Shown here: piece after piece, positions 6,251 through 27,591 of the stretch
How positions within the stretch are numbered: position 1 is the first letter of the stretch
How the letters are laid out: each line of letters starts with the position of its first letter
Assembly (NCBI GenBank): GCA_942493105.1
Contig: OW818668.1
Coordinates: forward strand, 150,001 to 182,000
Source: an uncultured Erysipelotrichaceae bacterium
Lineage (GTDB): Bacteria; Bacillota_I; Bacilli_A; Erysipelotrichales; Erysipelotrichaceae
Reading direction: 5' to 3'
DNA: 32,000 nt
The notes under the pieces: generated by a model
Databases searched by the model: none
What the model was told of the DNA's origin: nothing
Seen by the model: the letters and a program-made list of their open reading frames with translations, nothing else
Translations under genes and position numbers: made by a program

Positions 6251-6365
6251 AACTGGCAACGTGCTCTTTTCACTACGGCTAGCGTAGCTATATTTACCGC
6301 TGAAGTGCTTAACTTCTGTGTTCGGGATGGGAACAGGTGTGACCACTTCGCTATTGTCACCAGAT
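6251..6365 (-). rRNA. rrf: 5S ribosomal RNA
   Basis: The reverse complement reads TCTGGTGACAATAGCGAAGTGGTCACACCTGTTCCCATCCCGAACACAGAAGTTAAGC..., a canonical bacterial 5S. Ends are approximate. Confidence 0.9.
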
Positions 6366-6459
6366 CTGAGAGTTTATTCTCTCAAAACCGAATATCAGAT
6401 AGATAGTTGTTGTATTCAGGACGATCAATCTAAATAATTGATGTCTAAGTTATGGGTGT

Positions 6460-9351
<2,892 letters not shown>

Positions 9352-9548
9352 CTTGTTTTATTAACGTGTGTTTAACTGCTGTATTCTTGTTTTGCTTGAT
9401 TTACTGTTTATTTAAAACTGTTTGTTTCTCGTAATAAAAATCTTAGTTTTAGTTTTCAACTATTCAGAAAGATCATGTATTTATACATTTTTCTATCTGT
9501 TATTCGGTTTTCAAAGAACGAACTTCTTAAAATGAGAGCCGAGCTCTC

Positions 9549-9564
9549 AAAACTAAATAGGAAA
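9549..9564 (-). other. 3' arm of the 16S processing stalk (pairs with 11192-11207)
   Basis: AAAACTAAATAGGAAA at 9549-9564 is the exact reverse complement of 11192-11207. This gives a 16-bp helix bracketing the 16S gene, typical of RNase III processing stems. Confidence 0.6.
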
Positions 9565-9594
9565 TAGTGTCGATTTATGCAATTCTTTCTCCTT

Positions 9595-11120
<1,526 letters not shown>

Positions 11121-12559: not shown

Positions 12560-12675
12560 ACCTCCTGTTGTGTGAGGCGTAAGGATGTAAACTCCCTACG
12601 CTGGTTTTAACCAGATCAGGTGATAAGGGTCTGTCTCTAAACATCTCAGCCTTTTAGGCTCCCCTGTTCACGAGT
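12560..12675 (-). promoter_or_regulatory. TPP (THI-box) riboswitch with a probable SD-sequestering expression platform
   Basis: The minus strand reads GUGAACAGGGGAGCCUAAAAGGCUGAGAUGUUUAGAGACAGACCCUUAUCACCUGAUCUGGUUAAAACCAGCGUAGGGAGUUUAC. It has the hallmarks GGGGAGC, CUGAGA and ACCUGAUCUGG..ACCAGCGUAGGGA, with P1 GUGAAC/GUUUAC (12587-12671). Downstream, GCCUC could pair with the GAGGU of the SD. Confidence 0.88.
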
Positions 12676-21157: not shown

Positions 21158-21231
21158 TGGAGCAGGTGAGGGGAATCGAACCCCCGTATCGACCTTGGGA
21201 AGGTCGCGTTCTACCATTGAACTACACCTGC
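21158..21231 (-). tRNA. tRNA-Gly (anticodon CCC)
   Basis: The minus strand reads GCAGGTGTAGTTCAATGGTAGAACGCGACCTTCCCAAGGTCGATACGGGGGTTCGATTCCCCTCACCTGCTCCA. It folds as a cloverleaf with acceptor GCAGGTG/CACCTGC, anticodon stem CGACC/GGTCG, loop TTCCCAA, discriminator U and an encoded CCA. Confidence 0.9.
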
Positions 21232-21563: not shown

Positions 21564-21848
21564 CTATCTTTCGGTTAACGTTAGTTTTAGATCCAATCCA
21601 TCAATGATCTTCATCAATGTATCAATTTTTGGGATATGCTTTTCTCTTTCTAATCTAGATATGGCTTGCTGTGAAACACTTGCTTTTTTCGCAAGTTCAC
21701 ATTGAGATATTTTTTTTAGTTTGCGAATTCTAACAATTTGCTCAATCAGTTCATACCCCTTTTTAACCTGCTCAAAGTTTGATTTGAATTCATCATTTTT
21801 TAGTTCTTCGTTTAGGAGTTCTTTTACATCAATTTTCTTGAATGGCAT
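21564..21848 (-). CDS. XRE-family HTH protein, HigA-like antitoxin
   Basis: 94 aa with HTH_3-like R.LKKISQCELAKKASVSQQAISRLEREKHIPKIDTL. SD AGAGGAA lies 7 nt upstream. It sits directly downstream of a decayed Gp49/HigB-like gene. Confidence 0.75.
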   Translation of the reverse strand: MPFKKIDVKELLNEELKNDEFKSNFEQVKKGYELIEQIVRIRKLKKISQCELAKKASVSQQAISRLEREKHIPKIDTLMKIIDGLDLKLTLTER

Positions 21849-21862
21849 TTAAATTTCCTCTT

Positions 21863-22184
21863 TCACTTTATTTCTTTGGCTCTTTTTATTGCCAGATTTT
21901 TATCTTTTAATTCTGCACTGTTCTTTTGCTTTTACATCCATGTAACAGATAGATATTTTCGTAATCTTTGAGCACATAGAATATCCTATTGAATTTACGG
22001 AATCTAATTTCCCATATCTTCCCTTCAAAATGCTTAATATCAAATTTATTCAAATCATCGATATTACCATTTTCAAGTTTATCCAAAATGTAGAATCCTT
22101 CTGCTTTTCTTCAGTTCTCAGTGTGTTTAGAAATTCTAGTATGAGTTCTTTTCCACCTGTGGTTTCATACGAATGCACATTCAT
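21863..22184 (-). pseudogene. Gp49-like (DUF891, RelE/HigB superfamily) toxin gene disrupted by two frameshifts
   Basis: Three successive minus-strand frames give MNVHSYETTGGKELILEFLNTLRTEEK / (RK)AEGFYILDKLENGNIDDLNKFDIKHFEGKIWEIRFRKFNRIFYVLKDYENIYLLHGCK / KQKNSAELKDKNLAIKRAKEIK*. Joined, they form a typical ~107-aa Gp49-like toxin. Both breaks lie at A4 runs (22105-22108, and 21930-21933 or 21924-21927). Confidence 0.7.
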
Positions 22185-22440: not shown

Positions 22441-22514
22441 TGGAGCAGGTGAGGGGAATCGAACCCCCGTGTCGACCTTGGCAAGGTCGCGTTCTACCAT
22501 TGAACTACACCTGC
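22441..22514 (-). tRNA. tRNA-Gly (anticodon GCC)
   Basis: The minus strand reads GCAGGTGTAGTTCAATGGTAGAACGCGACCTTGCCAAGGTCGACACGGGGGTTCGATTCCCCTCACCTGCTCCA. It differs from the CCC copy at only 2 of 74 positions (anticodon position 34 and one variable-loop base). Confidence 0.92.
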
Positions 22515-22519
22515 AAAAA

Positions 22520-22595
22520 TGGCGGTCCAGACGGGATTCGAACCCGCGGTCTCCTCCGTGACAGGGAGGCATGTTAACCGCTACACCACTGGACC
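22520..22595 (-). tRNA. tRNA-Asp (anticodon GTC)
   Basis: The minus strand reads GGTCCAGTGGTGTAGCGGTTAACATGCCTCCCTGTCACGGAGGAGACCGCGGGTTCGAATCCCGTCTGGACCGCCA. The anticodon loop is CTGTCAC. Confidence 0.92.
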
Positions 22596-22617
22596 ACAAC
22601 ACAACACTGAACTAATA

Positions 22618-22710
22618 TGGCGCGGAAGGAGGGATTTGAACCCTCGCGTCAGTTTAATCCGACCTATGCCCTTAGCAGGGGCACCTCTTCAGCCGCTTGA
22701 GTACTTCCGC
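22618..22710 (-). tRNA. tRNA-Ser (anticodon GCT)
   Basis: The minus strand reads GCGGAAGTACTCAAGCGGCTGAAGAGGTGCCCCTGCTAAGGGCATAGGTCGGATTAAACTGACGCGAGGGTTCAAATCCCTCCTTCCGCGCCA. It has a long variable arm and the anticodon loop CTGCTAA. Confidence 0.92.
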
Positions 22711-22793: not shown

Positions 22794-22985
22794 TTACTCG
22801 ATGATAAAACCACATTCACGAATGGTCACTTTAGCCGTATAGACCGCATCAGCATCCCCTTCGATCACCACGATGTGATCTTTAGGTTTCACACTAAAGT
22901 TGAGTCTGGTTTCATCCAGTGCCGTTCTTATCTTTTCAGCTTGTTCTTCTGTATCTAAGTTTCTAACAAACAGGATGACTTTCAT
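22794..22985 (-). CDS. small hypothetical protein with an HMA/ferredoxin-like beta-alpha-beta-beta-alpha-beta pattern but no CxxC
   Basis: 63 aa. Its ATG overlaps the deoD stop (TAATG) and GGAGGA lies 5 nt upstream inside deoD. The alternating beta/alpha propensity follows the order seen in CopZ-like domains, but the metal-binding cysteines are absent. Confidence 0.55.
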   Translation of the reverse strand: MKVILFVRNLDTEEQAEKIRTALDETRLNFSVKPKDHIVVIEGDADAVYTAKVTIRECGFIIE

Positions 22986-23698
22986 TAATCCTCCAAGGCA
23001 ATCTGTAATGCGATTTCCATCATTTTCGTAAAGGAGTTTTGACGCTCTTCTGCGGTGGTCACTTCATGGGTCACCAAGGAATCTGAAATCGTCAATAAAC
23101 AAGCCGCTTCTTTCTTTAAGTAACGTGCATTGGCAAACAAGGCAAAGGATTCCATTTCAACACAGACCAAATGATGATCAAGGATGGCTTGTTTTAAAGC
23201 ATCCCCTTCTGCACGATAGAAGACATCTGATGAATGAATGACGCCTTTGATGATGGGGATATGAAGTCTGTTGGCGGCTTTCTCGAGTTGTTCATTTAAT
23301 CTAGGACTTGGATATTGAAGATCTTCATTGAATTTAAATGCTGTTTTTGCGAAGGAAGATTCACTAAAGGCAGCAGTCGCTAAGATCACATCATAGACTT
23401 TGGCTTCTGCTTGATAAGATCCGGCAGAACCAATACGAATGATACGCTCTACATCATATTGGCTATATAATTCATAGGAATAGATTCCAATCGAAGGCAT
23501 ACCCATTCCTGATCCCATAACTGAAATCGGATGACCTTTATAGGTTCCAGTATATCCAAACATGTTTCGGACATCATTGAATTTAACGACATTCTCAAGA
23601 TACGTCTCCGCTATTTTTTGGGCTCTTAAAGGATCTCCAGGCATTAAGACAGTTTTGGCGATCTGACCTTTTTGGGCGTTGTTGTGAGGGGTTGGCAT
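22985..23698 (-). CDS. deoD: purine nucleoside phosphorylase, DeoD type
   Basis: 237 aa. TPH......IA..VL.PGDPLRA..IA...L......N.VR.M.G.TG.YKG..ISVMG.GMG.PS..IY..EL is the hexameric PNP-1 family signature. Confidence 0.92.
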   Translation of the reverse strand: MPTPHNNAQKGQIAKTVLMPGDPLRAQKIAETYLENVVKFNDVRNMFGYTGTYKGHPISVMGSGMGMPSIGIYSYELYSQYDVERIIRIGSAGSYQAEAKVYDVILATAAFSESSFAKTAFKFNEDLQYPSPRLNEQLEKAANRLHIPIIKGVIHSSDVFYRAEGDALKQAILDHHLVCVEMESFALFANARYLKKEAACLLTISDSLVTHEVTTAEERQNSFTKMMEIALQIALED

Positions 23699-23768
23699 AG
23701 GCTTCTCCTTGGTTTTGCCTAAATTATATCATACCTGCCAAAGGTGTGAAATTAAGATGAATTGATGG

Positions 23769-23797
23769 TTGTTTATGGTCTGTTTAAAAGCTATAAT
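23769..23797 (+). promoter_or_regulatory. putative promoter of the Mg2+-related operon
   Basis: TTGTTT (23769-23774), 17-nt spacer, TATAAT (23792-23797). Confidence 0.5.
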
Positions 23798-23822
23798 GAA
23801 GGCAAATGAAAGGAGACTCTTT

Positions 23823-23909
23823 ATGGACAGTGACCCGCTTAGAACCCTGACTTGCTTAATAAAAAACACATCTGTTGAGAGGGCTCCTATCGCTCCTCTC
23901 AACAATTGA
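23823..23909 (+). CDS. candidate 28-codon leader peptide (uORF) MDSDPLRTLTCLIKNTSVERAPIAPLNN
   Basis: The ATG has SD AAAGGAG 7 nt upstream. The ORF runs through hairpin segments A and B, and its TGA (23907-23909) lies inside segment C, directly before the main-gene SD. It has no family assignment and is a prediction only. Confidence 0.4.
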   Translation: MDSDPLRTLTCLIKNTSVERAPIAPLNN

Positions 23910-23915
23910 GAGGAG
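23874..23915 (+). promoter_or_regulatory. three-segment alternative RNA structure (anti-sequestrator / sequestrator of the SD)
   Basis: A is GTTGAGAGG (23874-23882). B is CTCCTCTCAAC (23893-23903). C is TTGAGAGGAG (23906-23915) and contains the SD. A:B forms 9 perfect bp with a 12-nt loop. B:C forms 10 perfect bp with a 3-nt loop. The two pairings are mutually exclusive. Confidence 0.55.
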
Positions 23916-23922
23916 AAGAAAT

Positions 23923-25176
23923 GTGACCTTCAGCAATAACTTATTCTTCAGTAAGATTCTTCATAAAGATATTTTCAATTTGGACGATTCTGTCATTGGT
24001 AATCTCAATGATGTTTTAATTGATGCCAGTGGGATCAAACCTACCTTGACTGCCATAGAAGTCAAGAATGGGAAACGGATCTTCTACATCAACTGTGAGT
24101 CTCTTGAGATCTATCGTAAAAGAAACAATCAATTTACTTTAAAGTTGAATTCACAACAGATCACTTTCGCATCTCCACCTGATAATGCGATCTTTTTAGC
24201 CAAAGACATCCTAGATCGTCAAATCATCGACATCAACGGCCGTAAAGTAGAACGCGTCAATGATATACGAATTGGCTTGATCAATCAAAACTGGGCCGTC
24301 ATCGCAGCTGATATCGGTCTTAGGGGCCTCATACGTCGCTTAGGCATGGAGTATCTGGGAATAACGGTTTCCAGTTTGCTCAAGAAAGAATTCCACAACA
24401 AGCTCGTCGTATGGGACGATGTGCAGCCTTTGATTTCCAATCGGCATAATCTGCAATTGACCCAGCCTTTCACAAAATTGACCACCATGCATGCGGCAGA
24501 CATTGCCGATATCATTGAAGATCTAGATCGTCAAGCTCAGATCGAAGTCTTTAAAAGCTTAGACAATGAACAAGCAGCGGATGTCTTGGAAGAAGTGGAG
24601 TCGGATGTTCAGATTTCTTTGATTGAGCAATTACCTATTGAACAAGCCGCCGATGTCTTGGAGATGATGCCTCAAGATGAAGTCGCCGATATCTTAGAAG
24701 AAGTTGAAGATCTGACCGCTGAAAAACTGTTGATCGAAATGGAAGAACATATCTCAGAAGAAATCCGAGAACTGATGGAATACGATGATCGTACCGTTGG
24801 TTCTTTGATGATGACCGATATGATGTCTTTTGATAAAGATGAGAATGTTAAATCTGTTTTAAAACAACTTCGTCGTGAACAACCCGAAGAAGACATTACC
24901 AACTTCGTTTACGTAGTCGACCAGAAAAAACTGGTTGGGGTTATCTCTTTGATCGATCTGATCCATGCGAAGTCCAATCGTGTTTTACGTTCATTGATGA
25001 AGACAGAACTGGTTTTATTAAAAGATACCGATAAAATTGAATTTGCGATGGAACAGATGCAGAAATATAATTTGATGATTTTACCAGTCATCGATGAACA
25101 CGAAGAACTGATTGGGATCGTTTCTTTAATGGACATCGTTTATGAGTACATTCGTCTGAAGAAGGTGGATATATGA
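23923..25176 (+). CDS. cytosolic PRC-barrel + MgtE N-domain + CBS-pair protein (MgtE Mg2+-sensor module lacking the membrane pore)
   Basis: Start reassigned to the GTG at 23923 (MTFSNNLFF...), with GAGGAG 7 nt upstream. The track's TTG start at 23875 lies inside the leader hairpin. The acidic helical repeats HAADIADIIEDLD...AADVLEEVE...AADVLEMMPQDEVADILEEVE match MgtE_N. They are followed by two CBS motifs (...VGSLMMTDMMSF..., ...LVGVISLIDLI..., ...ILPVIDEHEELIGIVSLMDIV). No TM segments are present. Confidence 0.8.
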   Translation: MTFSNNLFFSKILHKDIFNLDDSVIGNLNDVLIDASGIKPTLTAIEVKNGKRIFYINCESLEIYRKRNNQFTLKLNSQQITFASPPDNAIFLAKDILDRQIIDINGRKVERVNDIRIGLINQNWAVIAADIGLRGLIRRLGMEYLGITVSSLLKKEFHNKLVVWDDVQPLISNRHNLQLTQPFTKLTTMHAADIADIIEDLDRQAQIEVFKSLDNEQAADVLEEVESDVQISLIEQLPIEQAADVLEMMPQDEVADILEEVEDLTAEKLLIEMEEHISEEIRELMEYDDRTVGSLMMTDMMSFDKDENVKSVLKQLRREQPEEDITNFVYVVDQKKLVGVISLIDLIHAKSNRVLRSLMKTELVLLKDTDKIEFAMEQMQKYNLMILPVIDEHEELIGIVSLMDIVYEYIRLKKVDI

Positions 25177-26411
25177 GAGAAAACATAAAGAAAAGATGGA
25201 CTAAACTGCTTTATATCTTAGGCATCATCGGACCAGGCATTATCACAGCCAATGCAGGCAATGATGCGGGTGGCATCGCTACTTACGCCAGTGTTGGGGC
25301 CAAATATGGTTACCGAATGATCTGGGGTTTAATGTTGATGACCATAGGTTTGGCGGTCGTCCAAGAAATGAATGCTCGGATGGGTGTGGTTACCGGAAAA
25401 GGCTTATCCGATCTGATTCGCGAAAAGTTTGGAGTCAAACTTACTTTGTTTGCGATGATCATTTTGTTTGTTGCTAATTTCGGAGTTGTTTTAGGTGATT
25501 TTGCAGGGGTTGCCGCATCGATGGAACTCTTTGGGGTTTCAAAATACATCTCTGTGCCTTTGGTTGCTTTATTCATATGGATCCTTGTCTCAAAAGGATC
25601 TTATGTCAAGGTTGAGAAGATCTTGATGTTGTTTACTTTTGTATTTTTCGGATATATCATTGCAGCCTTTATGGTCAAACCGGATTGGAATGAAGTCGCC
25701 ATCCAAGCCATTACCCCTACTTTTGATATGAATACTGGATTCATACTCGCATTCATCGGATTGGTTGGGACGACAATCACGCCCTATATGCAATTTTATC
25801 TTCAAGCATCCATCGTTGATAAAAAACTGAGTCTAAAAGACTATAAATATGAAAAACTGGATGTCTATATTGGTTCTGTTTGGGGCAACGTCGTTCAGTT
25901 CTTCATCATCGTGTGTACTGCAGCTACTTTATATGCGGTTGGGATCCAAGTCGACAGCGCCTCTGCGGCTGCTTTAGCGCTTAAACCTTTGGCCGGTGAA
26001 AATGCCTTTATTTTGTTTGGAGCAGGCTTATTTGGTGCCTCTGTCTTAGCGACCGCCATCATTCCTCTTTCCACGTCCTATGCGATCTGTGAAGCGTTTG
26101 GATGGGAAAGCGGTGTCGATTACAGTGTCAAAGAAGCACCTGCTTTCTTTGGGATCTATACCTTCATCATCGTGATCGCATCTTCTTTGGTTTTGATTCC
26201 TAATCTTAATCTGATGAGTTTGATCATCAGTACGCAACAGATTGCGGGGGTCTTAACTCCCATCATCTTGATTTTCATGATCATGTTGGTCAATGATAAA
26301 CGCATCATGGGCAAACACACCAACACTAAGATCCAAAACAGTATCGCACTGATCACAGTCACTTTGATCATTGCGATGACCTTGGCCTTGATCGTTTCTC
26401 AATTCCTATAA
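25173..26411 (+). CDS. Nramp-related transporter with a non-canonical metal site (candidate Mg2+ transporter, NRMT-like)
   Basis: 412 aa with about 11 TM segments and the Nramp/SLC11 fold. TM1 reads GNDAGG (D31-A-G-G, nt 25263-25274) where the canonical motif is DPGN. TM6 reads GTTITPY (T203, nt 25779-25781) where the canonical motif is A..MPH. An ATGA start/stop overlap joins it to the upstream gene. Confidence 0.75.
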   Translation: MRENIKKRWTKLLYILGIIGPGIITANAGNDAGGIATYASVGAKYGYRMIWGLMLMTIGLAVVQEMNARMGVVTGKGLSDLIREKFGVKLTLFAMIILFVANFGVVLGDFAGVAASMELFGVSKYISVPLVALFIWILVSKGSYVKVEKILMLFTFVFFGYIIAAFMVKPDWNEVAIQAITPTFDMNTGFILAFIGLVGTTITPYMQFYLQASIVDKKLSLKDYKYEKLDVYIGSVWGNVVQFFIIVCTAATLYAVGIQVDSASAAALALKPLAGENAFILFGAGLFGASVLATAIIPLSTSYAICEAFGWESGVDYSVKEAPAFFGIYTFIIVIASSLVLIPNLNLMSLIISTQQIAGVLTPIILIFMIMLVNDKRIMGKHTNTKIQNSIALITVTLIIAMTLALIVSQFL

Positions 26412-26414
26412 AAT

Positions 26415-26442
26415 AAAAGCGAGTCGCTGACTCGCTTTACTT
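26415..26442. terminator. bidirectional terminator between convergent genes
   Basis: AAGCGAGT-CGCTG-ACTCGCTT flanked by AAATAAA and TACTTTG. It overlaps the ddl stop. Confidence 0.7.
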
Positions 26443-27591
26443 TGATCCTTTACTTCCGCCTGACCTATAATTAGCCAATATGTTTGTCGAATAAGAGAAG
26501 ATCATCTTATTTTTTTGACGGGTTCTTCGAATGGCGATATCGACCAATTCATCCATCAAGGCTGGGAAAGGTTTATCGGTTGCTTCCCACAGATAGAATG
26601 ATAAAGATCCTGGGATCGTATTGATTTCATTCACATAGACCTTTTGAGTTTTATCATCCAATAAGAAATCGATACGGCATACCCCTGCCCCATTAAGAAC
26701 CCTAAAGGCTTCTAAGGCATAGGCTTGGATTTCTAAAGTAAGTTCTTTGGATACTTTGGCTGGACACTGTCTGGTCAAAGAGGCCATGCCTTTAGATTTA
26801 CCACTGCCTTTATATTTGTTGTCGTAGGAAAGGATCGTATCTTCCTTCATGACTTCTTCCAGTACTGATGCTTCACTTCGATCATAGTAACCTAAGACTG
26901 AACAATTCAGTTCTCTTAAGTTGGTAACAGCTTTTTCTACAACGATCTTCACATCATATTGAGAAGCTGTTTCTACAGCTAAAACAAAATCTTTTTCATT
27001 ATGAACCAAACTGATCCCAACACTAGATCCTAAGTTGGCTGGTTTGATGACGACTGGATATCCTAGTTTTTCTACTCTATTTAAGATTTCTTTGCGTTGC
27101 TTGATAAACTCATAGTCAAAGAACCACAACCAATCTACGATCGGTAAGCGGGCATGCTCAAGGATTTGTTTCATCACAACTTTATCCTGTCCTACAGCCC
27201 CACCTAAGACATCTGCGCCACTATAAGGTATCCCTAAGGTTTCTAGATATCCCGCAATAGAACCGTCTTCACAGTGCGTCCCATGGACGACAGGAATGAC
27301 CAAATCGATTTCTTGTCTTCTTTTATAAGGAGACAAAGGTTTGATGAAGAACTTTTGATTCTCTTTGACTAATGAGACTTGAGGAACTGATTTCTCAATG
27401 GAATCAAGATCTTTATAGGTCGTGATGTGTTTCAATTTAGCAGATGAATAAAACTTATGATCTTTGGCCAGATATAAAGGAAATACTTTATATTTCTTTT
27501 CATCTAAAGCAGCCATGGCTTGCATGGCTGATATGATACTGACTTCATGTTCAACGGAATCTCCGCCAAACAATACAGCAACTTTTAACAT
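26437..27591 (-). CDS. ddl: D-alanine--D-alanine ligase
   Basis: 384 aa. Contains V.FGG.S.EHEVS..SA, the ATP-grasp block (YPV..KPA..GSS.GIS) and E.NT.PG. It retains the K-Y pair (YDNKY) expected of D-Ala-D-Ala rather than D-Ala-D-Lac ligases. Confidence 0.9.
   Translation of the reverse strand: MLKVAVLFGGDSVEHEVSIISAMQAMAALDEKKYKVFPLYLAKDHKFYSSAKLKHITTYKDLDSIEKSVPQVSLVKENQKFFIKPLSPYKRRQEIDLVIPVVHGTHCEDGSIAGYLETLGIPYSGADVLGGAVGQDKVVMKQILEHARLPIVDWLWFFDYEFIKQRKEILNRVEKLGYPVVIKPANLGSSVGISLVHNEKDFVLAVETASQYDVKIVVEKAVTNLRELNCSVLGYYDRSEASVLEEVMKEDTILSYDNKYKGSGKSKGMASLTRQCPAKVSKELTLEIQAYALEAFRVLNGAGVCRIDFLLDDKTQKVYVNEINTIPGSLSFYLWEATDKPFPALMDELVDIAIRRTRQKNKMIFSYSTNILANYRSGGSKGSK

Follow-up and report, generated by a model that had tools for sequence, protein, structure and literature searches.

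A leader ORF with an acidic N-terminus and alternative RNA helices upstream of an mgtE-nramp operon in Bacillota, a candidate translational attenuator of Mg2+ uptake

Introduction

Control of Mg2+ transporter genes in Gram-positive bacteria is attributed to the M-box riboswitch, and to our knowledge the sensing of Mg2+ through leader peptides (mgtL, mgtP, mgtQ) is known from enterobacteria only. Here we describe the leader of a two-gene operon, encoding a CBS-domain protein and an Nramp-related transporter, in the genome of an uncultured Erysipelotrichaceae bacterium (assembly GCA_942493105.1, contig OW818668.1, positions 150,001 to 182,000 of the forward strand). The whole stretch of 32,000 nucleotides (nt) that was analysed is referred to as the window. 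The leader, with a length of ~118 nt, harbours a short upstream open reading frame (uORF) with its own Shine-Dalgarno (SD) sequence, and this uORF runs through RNA segments that can form mutually exclusive helices. It is a candidate translational attenuator of Mg2+ uptake.

By analogy of layout, the closest structural analogue is attenuation of the ermC/cat type. In these systems a leader ORF with its own SD precedes the regulated gene, pairing of segments 1:2 and 3:4 hides the SD of that gene, and pairing of 2:3 frees it. In ermC, where the inducer is an antibiotic in the exit tunnel, the downstream SD becomes accessible when a ribosome is held on segment 1. The leader described here differs in that stalling or abortion is proposed at codons 2-5, and in that the segment corresponding to '1' includes the initiation region of the leader ORF.

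N-terminal sequences rich in Asp, Glu and Pro (D/E/P), with small residues after Met1, abort translation, and more so at low Mg2+; the paradigm is MgtL, with MEPDPT (10.1101/2021.02.02.429294). Similar to mgtL, which precedes mgtA in Salmonella and E. coli, the leader of the window possesses a short SD-equipped ORF in front of a predicted Mg2+ importer, is D/E/P-rich right after Met (MDSDPL), and has its ORF overlapping alternative stem-loops. The proposed logic is also the same, namely early loss of ribosomes at low Mg2+, an alternative fold and expression (10.1101/2021.02.02.429294). However, the two share no sequence homology and the host of the leader described here belongs to the Bacillota. 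The output is Rho-dependent termination in mgtL and predicted SD sequestration here, the ORF has 17 codons in mgtL and 28-36 codons in the uORFs, and the motif is weaker here (three of six residues D/E/P). In addition, the uORF's own SD and AUG form part of the predicted switch.

Other described systems share some of these traits. In mgtQ, Asp2 and Glu5 together with alternative stem-loops free the ribosome-binding site of mgtB (PMC8092293). Early acidic residues, a fold that hides the ribosome-binding site of a transporter gene, and translational control are common to mgtQ of Salmonella and the leader of the window; mgtQ has only 8 codons, lies between genes within an operon and is unrelated in sequence, whereas the uORF of the window extends across the anti-sequestor hairpin as far as the main SD. 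Similar to the uORF described here in other loci, Rv1805A of mycobacteria is a small conserved ORF located between an M-box and Mg2+-related genes, in which the conserved part is the N-terminus, with an invariant Pro (PMC12810186). As described, it is set apart by belonging to a peptide family specific to mycobacteria, with an M-box that masks the uORF SD and termination by Rho (PMC12810186). The M-box itself (ykoK, Rfam RF00380) controls the same operon family (PMC4072509), and its physiological sign is presumably alike; it differs in being a large aptamer that acts on a terminator, and the window lacks it. Judged from these comparisons, the element is neither an M-box nor a MgtL homologue and is a predicted four-segment attenuator with a MgtL-like N-terminal motif. 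A full-text search of the literature returned no description of an acidic leader peptide, or of a tandem of M-box and uORF, in Gram-positives/Bacillota, the nearest cases being mgtQ and Rv1805A.

Results

Alternative folds of the leader

A repeat search of the window detected two perfect 10-nt inverted repeats with one arm, segment B, in common. The first, A:B (23873-23882 / 23895-23904, TGTTGAGAGG / CCTCTCAACA), pairs in 10 of 10 base pairs (bp) around a 12-nt loop. The second, B:C (23893-23902 / 23906-23915, CTCCTCTCAA / TTGAGAGGAG), also pairs in 10 of 10 bp, around a 3-nt loop, and occludes the SD of the first operon gene. Non-palindromic perfect inverted repeats of at least 10 nt with arms within 30 nt are rare in the window, only about ten being present over the 32 kb.

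A further segment, named 0, comprises the initiation region of the uORF and pairs with the A region to form a helix, P0. Helix 0:A (P0) together with B:C is mutually exclusive with A:B, and the downstream SD lies in the fourth segment. The closed fold (P0 + B:C) hides both ribosome-binding sites and has a predicted energy of -33.3 kcal/mol in the window, and the open fold (A:B) one of -28.8 kcal/mol. When the transcript was folded as it grows, the minimum free energy (MFE) structure contained P0 at 23888, A:B at 23904, and P0 + B:C at 23916. With the uORF start masked (23808-23850), A:B stayed the MFE structure up to 23925. No intrinsic terminator was found 3' of B:C in the window.

Several of these traits had been claimed in an earlier note on this DNA, which was made from the letters alone. 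Its mutually exclusive hairpins are in the sequence, including the perfect pairing of A:B and the 10-bp B:C helix over the main SD; the A:B helix, given there as 9 bp, is one pair longer, and the three-way switch becomes one of four segments, since the SD/AUG of the uORF pairs with the A region. The folding check that it had called for showed a leader more stable than its shuffled versions (z = -2.96; 2/200 shuffles as stable). The note's promoter (TTGTTT-17-TATAAT) is present with both hexamers kept in the clade, the 28-codon uORF with its AAAGGAG SD at 7-nt spacing exists as described and has equivalents in ~50 leaders, and the uORF stop does lie inside segment C. Its GTG start at 23923 agrees with the end-to-end alignment of homologues, and the ATG-TGA pair over this start is also there.

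Start signals of the leader and of the operon

The intergenic region has 224 bp and is located between a divergent purine-nucleoside-phosphorylase-like gene (22985-23698, minus strand) and the two-gene operon. As the upstream neighbour is divergent, the operon promoter must sit inside this region. The putative promoter was not listed by a consensus scan because its -35 hexamer matches at three of six positions only; nonetheless, in the clade alignment (L001-L005) the -35 and -10 hexamers are both kept, with a variable spacer. The transcription start site (TSS) is predicted at ~23804. In eight close relatives the uORF is identical in length and frame.

The SD of the first operon gene, GGAG (23912-23915), lies 7 nt 5' of GTG 23923. 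This GTG is taken as the true start, because the homologues, of 417-418 amino acids (aa), align over 100% of the length. The sequence around it, AATGTGACC, which holds the ATG-TGA pair and the GTG, is invariant in 9/9 clade members, a conservation that is inseparable from the coding constraint of gene 1. Gene 1 of the other clades begins with a plain ATG, with no ATG-TGA pair.

A second small ORF is present in another frame at 23806-23850 (ATGAAAGGAGAC..., MKGDSLWTVTRLEP), overlapping the uORF SD and the first nine uORF codons. It starts ~2 nt past the predicted TSS and would be nearly leaderless, and its ATG is TTG in L069. On the minus strand, a near-consensus promoter (23750-23723; TTCACA, 16-nt spacer, TG-TATAAT; 11/12 matches) faces the divergent phosphorylase-superfamily gene, so that two promoters stand back to back, ~20 bp apart.

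The leader peptide in related operons

The comparison comprised 65 genome and 80 metagenome loci encoding relatives of gene 1, the closest being Erysipelotrichaceae metagenome-assembled genomes with 95% identity. About 50 leaders from Erysipelotrichales and Clostridia, all in front of the same operon, possess an SD followed by a short ORF. The gene 1 proteins behind these leaders reach down to ~45% identity, and the leaders are divergent outside the conserved parts. Operons outside the Bacillota (at most 46% identity; Acidobacteria, Actinomycetota, and others) were without such a uORF by the criterion used.

The conserved part of the peptide is its N-terminus, which reads M-D-S-D-P in the window clade, M-D-G-D-P-A-N/D in clade C1, M-D-I-D-P in C2, M-D-L-D-P in C3, and M-D-D-x-D-T-D in a Clostridium group; the family pattern is M-[D/E]-x-[D/G/S/E]-P. 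All 50 leaders have an acidic residue 2, compared with 16% of 205 background ORFs taken from the same DNA, and at least three D/E/P occur in residues 2-7 in 82% of the leaders against 1.5% of this background. Asp and Glu make up 37% of residues 2-8 and 4.4% of the remaining residues. In the window, residues 2-7 (D-S-D-P-L-R) include three D/E/P. Among 44 leaders, codon 2 is always acidic (GAC 26, GAT 15, GAA 2, GAG 1), position 3 is small or Asp (G/S/A/T/D) in 36, codon 4 is Asp in 29, and codon 5 is Pro in 30 (CCT 17, CCG 10, CCC 3). A strict DNA motif, GGAG-N4-12-ATGGAYNNNGAYCC, was found once per locus, at the leader only. The codons for Met-Asp-Ser-Asp-Pro are proposed as the candidate site of Mg2+-sensitive stalling or abortion of the ribosome.

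Although the DNA is AT-rich and frames +1 and +2 contain 1-6 stops, frame 0 is uninterrupted over 20-48 codons. Conservation of the whole peptide was considered and dropped after an RNAcode-like comparison, the N-terminus and the open frame being all that is conserved. An open frame with a freely evolving body is what characterises regulatory leader ORFs. When five of the leader peptides were scanned against Pfam and NCBIfam, no leader-peptide family was detected, and one chance match was obtained (RepB_LM, E = 0.15). Likewise, there was no NCBIfam or Pfam match indicating homology to MgtL, the presence of a MgtL model in these libraries being unconfirmed.

In 46/50 leaders the uORF ends between the A:B loop and C, at 13-45 nt from the main start. 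Since the stop is 3' of the A:B loop, complete translation of the uORF would unwind A:B. The distance from stop to main start is 13-18 nt in the window clade (13 nt in the window), C1 and the Clostridium group. In C2, C3 and some single loci the stop is 34-74 nt upstream, inside or before the A:B hairpin. Seven loci (L034, L036 and L038, also L024, L025, L027 and L093) differ from the compact leaders in having the acidic uORF farther upstream, at 70-380 nt from the main start, and additional sequence that may include a second small ORF between uORF and gene. In clade C1 and the Clostridium group, Cys is frequent at residue 9 (17 of the 44 leaders compared; TGC 12, TGT 5), and a (Y/H)-F-(Y)-L patch is found at about residues 12-15. 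None of the explanations discussed below accounts for the patch or for Cys9; they may represent exit-tunnel contacts or RNA constraints.

The comparison also bears on two further ideas of the earlier note. Its proposal that the Pro codons of APIAP, lying over A/B, act as the sensor was not borne out, as relatives read ILNAPL, TFNTSL or FFYSSL at this place; the Pro that recurs in the 3' half of the uORF is encoded by the CCU of arm B, the anti-SD. Conservation is found in the N-terminal codons (M-D-x-D-P), which is suggestive of ribosomes that abort or stall early, as with MgtL/MgtQ, and not of proline-tRNA sensing at the hairpins. The likeness to mgtL/mgtP in logic and not in sequence, which it had suggested for the window, extends to the ~50 related leaders.

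Conservation and covariation of the helices

Covariation, which the earlier note had asked for in orthologous leaders, was found for A:B and not for B:C. In C1 the A:B helix is 92% paired with three compensatory pairs (U:A/G:C, A:U/U:A/G:C, A:U/G:C), and 0/500 shuffles reach its score. The 6-bp core of A:B is invariant in the window clade. Helix B:C is 85-91% paired (91% in the window clade) against at most 65% in slid controls, and it is present in the MFE structure of the window and in the consensus fold of three clades. Its covariation was not significant, with one compensatory cell in the window clade and none in C1, which is expected as C is the SD.

RNAalifold gave helix P0 as the consensus in each of three clades that were aligned separately, and the P0-type helices have energies of -20 to -30 kcal/mol. 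In the window clade it is 94% paired against at most 65% in slid controls, without covariation. For P0 of the Clostridium group, with 93% pairing and compensatory changes, none of 500 shuffles scored as high. The pairings in C1 include AUGGAC:GUCUAU and, between the Asp-Pro codons and segment A, CCC:GGG. Complementarity of the initiation region to the A-B region, taken over all leaders, has a median z of -2.5. When folding was constrained in the window clade and C1, the MFE structure paired B with the main SD, and blocking of this SD led to pairing of B with A.

Two approaches gave no usable evidence. Pairing of the main SD was compared with shuffled upstream sequence, and was not used because a purine-rich SD pairs with almost any shuffle. 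An automatic RNAduplex search for A/B/C in each leader was too noisy, long imperfect duplexes swamping the hairpins.

Relationship to the M-box riboswitch

No M-box (RF00380) was detected in the window at the gathering score, and neither an M-box nor any other Rfam family matched the leader (23650-24050) at E <= 10, in agreement with the earlier note, which saw no M-box here. However, the same Rfam search detected an M-box upstream of the uORF in 12/20 related loci tested (L010, L023-L028, L030, L032, L034, L038, L040), with 107-154 bits. In the sequences inspected, the order is M-box aptamer, terminator, and then uORF SD. The window clade and several Clostridia possess the uORF leader alone. 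The suggestion that the leader is an alternative to the M-box thus holds for the window clade and fails in Clostridium, where the element lies directly behind an M-box. The tandem loci appear to have two putative Mg2+ checkpoints in series on one operon.

Other riboswitches detected upstream of the operon in relatives are on the opposite strand and belong to divergent neighbouring genes: a c-di-AMP element in L028 (2127-2258, minus), a fluoride element in L020 (2519-2592, minus), and a T-box in L016 (2539-2735, minus).

The operon and other features of the window

Features of the leader and the operon are collected in Table 1. Based on its domains, gene 1 likely encodes a Mg2+-sensing partner of the transporter. 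Gene 2 follows gene 1 in 44 loci, and its start overlaps the stop of gene 1 (ATGA, 25173-25176); this overlap of the CBS-domain and Nramp-like genes suggests translational coupling. The Nramp-related protein encoded by gene 2 has the motifs DAGG (Asn to Gly) and GTTITPY, without the Asn, Met and His of Mn2+/Fe2+ Nramps, which at the same sites possess DPGN and the Met and His of helix 6. Proteins of the NRMT type show Asn to Gly in helix 1 and, on helix 6, Ala to Thr and loss of Met and His (10.1101/2021.10.17.464711). Gene 2 is thus NRMT-like in type, inexactly, with Met changed to Thr rather than Ala and His to Tyr rather than Trp.

Operons of the mgtE-nramp kind under M-box control have been shown to import Mg2+ (PMC4072509). 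By its domains and residues the gene pair belongs to this 'mgtE-nramp' branch, members of which follow M-box riboswitches. The label 'Mg2+ operon', already used in the earlier note, is reasonable because of the gene domains, the NRMT-type residues, and the M-boxes before orthologous operons. Downstream, the hairpin at the end of gene 2 is likely the operon end or a bidirectional terminator.

Table 1. Predicted features of the leader and the operon (positions in the window).
Feature	Position	Strand	Description
Putative sigma-70-type promoter	23769..23797	+	-35 TTGTTT 23769-23774, 17-nt spacer, -10 TATAAT 23792-23797
uORF Shine-Dalgarno	23809..23815	+	AAAGGAG, 7 nt 5' of ATG 23823; invariant in 9/9 clade members
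Segment 0	23811..23827	+	AGGAG, CUCUU, AUGGA; uORF initiation region, pairs with A region (helix P0)
Leader ORF (uORF)	23823..23909	+	28 codons, MDSDPLRTLTCLIKNTSVERAPIAPLNN; stop TGA 23907-23909 within segment C
Conserved N-terminal motif	23823..23837	+	Met-Asp-Ser-Asp-Pro; D/E/P-rich with a small residue
P0 3' strand	23871..23888	+	UCUGU, GAGAG, CUCCU; overlaps segment A and A:B loop
Segment A	23873..23882	+	TGTTGAGAGG; SD-like direct repeat of C, pairs with B (anti-sequestor) or segment 0
Segment B	23893..23904	+	CTCCTCTCAACA; anti-SD arm common to A:B and B:C
Segment C	23906..23915	+	TTGAGAGGAG; main-gene SD (GGAG 23912-23915), holds uORF stop
ATG-TGA minimal ORF	23921..23926	+	Overlaps gene 1 GTG start 23923
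Gene 1	23923..25176	+	Soluble PRC-barrel + MgtE_N + 2xCBS protein, 417 aa (Pfam)
Gene 2	25173..26411	+	Nramp-related, NRMT-type transporter, 412 aa (Pfam Nramp, 1.4e-94)
Hairpin	26408..26446		18-nt arms, 83% complementary; between convergent transporter and D-Ala-D-Ala ligase genes

Elsewhere in the window, the minus strand at 21564-22086 encodes an HTH_3/addiction-module-antidote-like gene (94 aa) and a truncated Gp49/HigB-like toxin ORF (59 aa), which lie between tRNA genes at 21161-21231 and 22444-22710. The pair appears to be the remnant of a toxin-antitoxin system. A complete rRNA operon (5S, 23S, 16S; 6251-11119) and a TPP riboswitch (12576-12675, 72.9 bits) are also present on the minus strand.

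Discussion

Proposed regulation of the operon

Based on the sequence features of the leader, their conservation, the compensatory changes (in A:B and the helix of the uORF start), the biased N-terminus and the arrangement in tandem with the M-box, we propose that the leader may be a uORF-based, ermC/mgtL-like translational attenuator of a Mg2+-uptake operon that is on at low Mg2+. We consider this reading close to, and slightly short of, an even chance. It presumes a translated uORF, Mg2+ as the signal, a motif that acts via the nascent peptide, and control in this direction.

In the closed fold, 0 would pair with A and B with C, hiding both ribosome-binding sites; in the open fold, A would pair with B and leave both free. 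The strong SD of the uORF would load ribosomes, and a ribosome dwelling or re-initiating at the first codons would keep 0 from capturing A. Segment A, being free, could then pair with B once B is transcribed, so that C stays unpaired and the operon is translated. A ribosome that reaches the stop at 23907 would instead melt A:B; after it leaves, B would close on the adjacent C, across the 3-nt loop, and 0 would re-capture A, switching the operon off. The D/E/P-rich N-terminus, with a small residue at position 3, resembles sequences that destabilise or stall ribosomes with an empty exit tunnel, the more so at low Mg2+, which is known as intrinsic ribosome destabilisation in MgtL and MgtQ. At low cytoplasmic Mg2+ the ribosomes would then fail to traverse A/B, and the operon would be on. 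Switching an importer on at low Mg2+ has the same sign as the tandem M-box in Clostridium.

Several observations weigh against this reading. By predicted energy the closed fold is the more stable one (-33.3 against -28.8 kcal/mol), and even a transcript with a masked uORF start adopts a fold with B:C when it is extended by 15 nt of the main gene (23926-23940). The on state would have to be kinetic. RNA polymerase outruns the ribosome in Bacillus, which weakens models based on co-transcriptional timing of the ribosome. In the window the motif is modest, with D + D + P in six residues against 5/6 in MgtL, and the uORF body shows no coding signature when synonymous and non-synonymous changes are compared in three frames (RNAcode-like). 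AUGGA is within P0 in every clade, hence the conservation of the uORF start is partly explicable as RNA pairing; with the CCC:GGG pairing of C1, this means that the argument at the peptide level is not clean. Helices A:B, B:C and P0 are conserved in the window clade essentially without covariation, because its sequences are too similar, and the support comes from other clades. Finally, a uORF stop 13-18 nt from the main start, as in three clades, suits positive coupling equally.

Alternative explanations

Under positive translational coupling, B:C would be closed by default, and ribosomes that translate the uORF to its stop would open it and allow (re)initiation at the main gene. The uORF would be an activator, its N-terminus would merely set the flux of ribosomes, and the signal could be the general translation capacity. 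We regard this as unlikely, if still a serious candidate. The presence of B:C in the MFE structure and the consensus fold of every clade is in agreement with it, as are the short stop-to-start distance in the window clade, C1 and the Clostridium group and the finding that a ribosome modelled at the uORF stop contains the main SD. However, the stops of C2, C3 and some single loci are too distant for termination-reinitiation, and segment A is given no role, yet A:B is conserved with compensatory changes. If the acidic N-terminus cuts read-through at low Mg2+, coupling would also turn the importer off at low Mg2+, opposite to the tandem M-box. The long conserved helix P0, which contains the uORF start, would also fit a switch made of RNA alone, in which the leader itself responds to a trans-acting factor, to temperature or to a cation (Mg2+ stabilising P0 + B:C). 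In this case the uORF would be incidental or an aid for loading ribosomes, and 'MDxDP' a by-product of the pairing of the uORF start with the G-rich A. The pairings AUGGAC:GUCUAU and CCC:GGG of C1 and the uORF body without coding signature are consistent with this, and the mgtA leader of Salmonella was at first read as a direct Mg2+-sensing RNA, according to a work cited in PMC4072509. Nevertheless, the leader has simple helices only, with no complex aptamer-like core and no Rfam match, and every clade retains a correctly spaced SD, an AUG and an open frame. Acidic residues are retained by clades that use different codons for them (GAC/GAT/GAA/GAG for residue 2) and pair these with different partners, the MDDxDTD codons of the Clostridium group are weakly paired, and the window clade conserves GACCC (GAC-CCN) outside the predicted P0 helix. 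A switch made of RNA alone is in our view rather improbable.

The uORF could also encode a functional small protein, such as a transporter subunit or regulator comparable to MgtR/MgtS/MgtU or Rv1805A, with hairpins that only tune its translation; we think this decidedly improbable. In two clades the conserved N-terminal part does reach as far as (Y/H)-F-(Y)-L and the frequent Cys9, the codon of which varies synonymously (TGC/TGT), and the mycobacterial M-box uORF with its invariant Pro is suspected by its authors to encode a functional peptide (PMC12810186). However, length (20-48 aa) and body are poorly conserved, the synonymous fraction is no better than in other frames, and the C-terminal half is dictated by the RNA arms. 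The peptides also lack a hydrophobic helix of membrane-spanning length and a matching Pfam or NCBIfam family. Short ORFs and SD-like purine runs are common in AT-rich intergenic DNA, and shuffled upstream sequence often pairs with the SD, so that a chance ORF with chance hairpins was weighed as well. Against it stand an element with its parts in the same order in ~50 leaders of distant Bacillota, the compensatory changes, the extreme N-terminal bias, a motif that is unique to the leader in each locus, and the sharing of an arm by two perfect 10-bp inverted repeats, of which the 32 kb contain only a few. As far as sequence analysis goes, a chance origin is already refuted by these comparative data, and we give it next to no credence.

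Implications

Taken more broadly, the attenuator reading leads to the tentative proposal, to which we give somewhat less than an even chance, that Bacillota independently evolved a ribosome-based Mg2+ sensor, consisting of a Met-Asp-x-Asp-Pro leader peptide, on which ribosomes would stall or fall off at low Mg2+, and a bistable four-segment RNA, which would open and close the ribosome-binding sites of uORF and operon jointly. It would be used alone in the Erysipelotrichaceae genome of the window and behind an M-box in Clostridium. With ~118 nt and a five-residue motif, the element offers a compact, testable model. It may affect how published M-box reporter data are read, if the fusions carried or omitted the uORF element (PMC4072509). 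If the proposal is true, Mg2+ would be sensed twice on the same mRNA in the tandem loci, by the RNA at transcription and by the ribosome at translation, and these loci would provide a natural tandem of riboswitch and ribosome sensor for studying the integration of two Mg2+ inputs. The use of ribosome stability as a gauge of Mg2+ would then be a convergent and widespread strategy.

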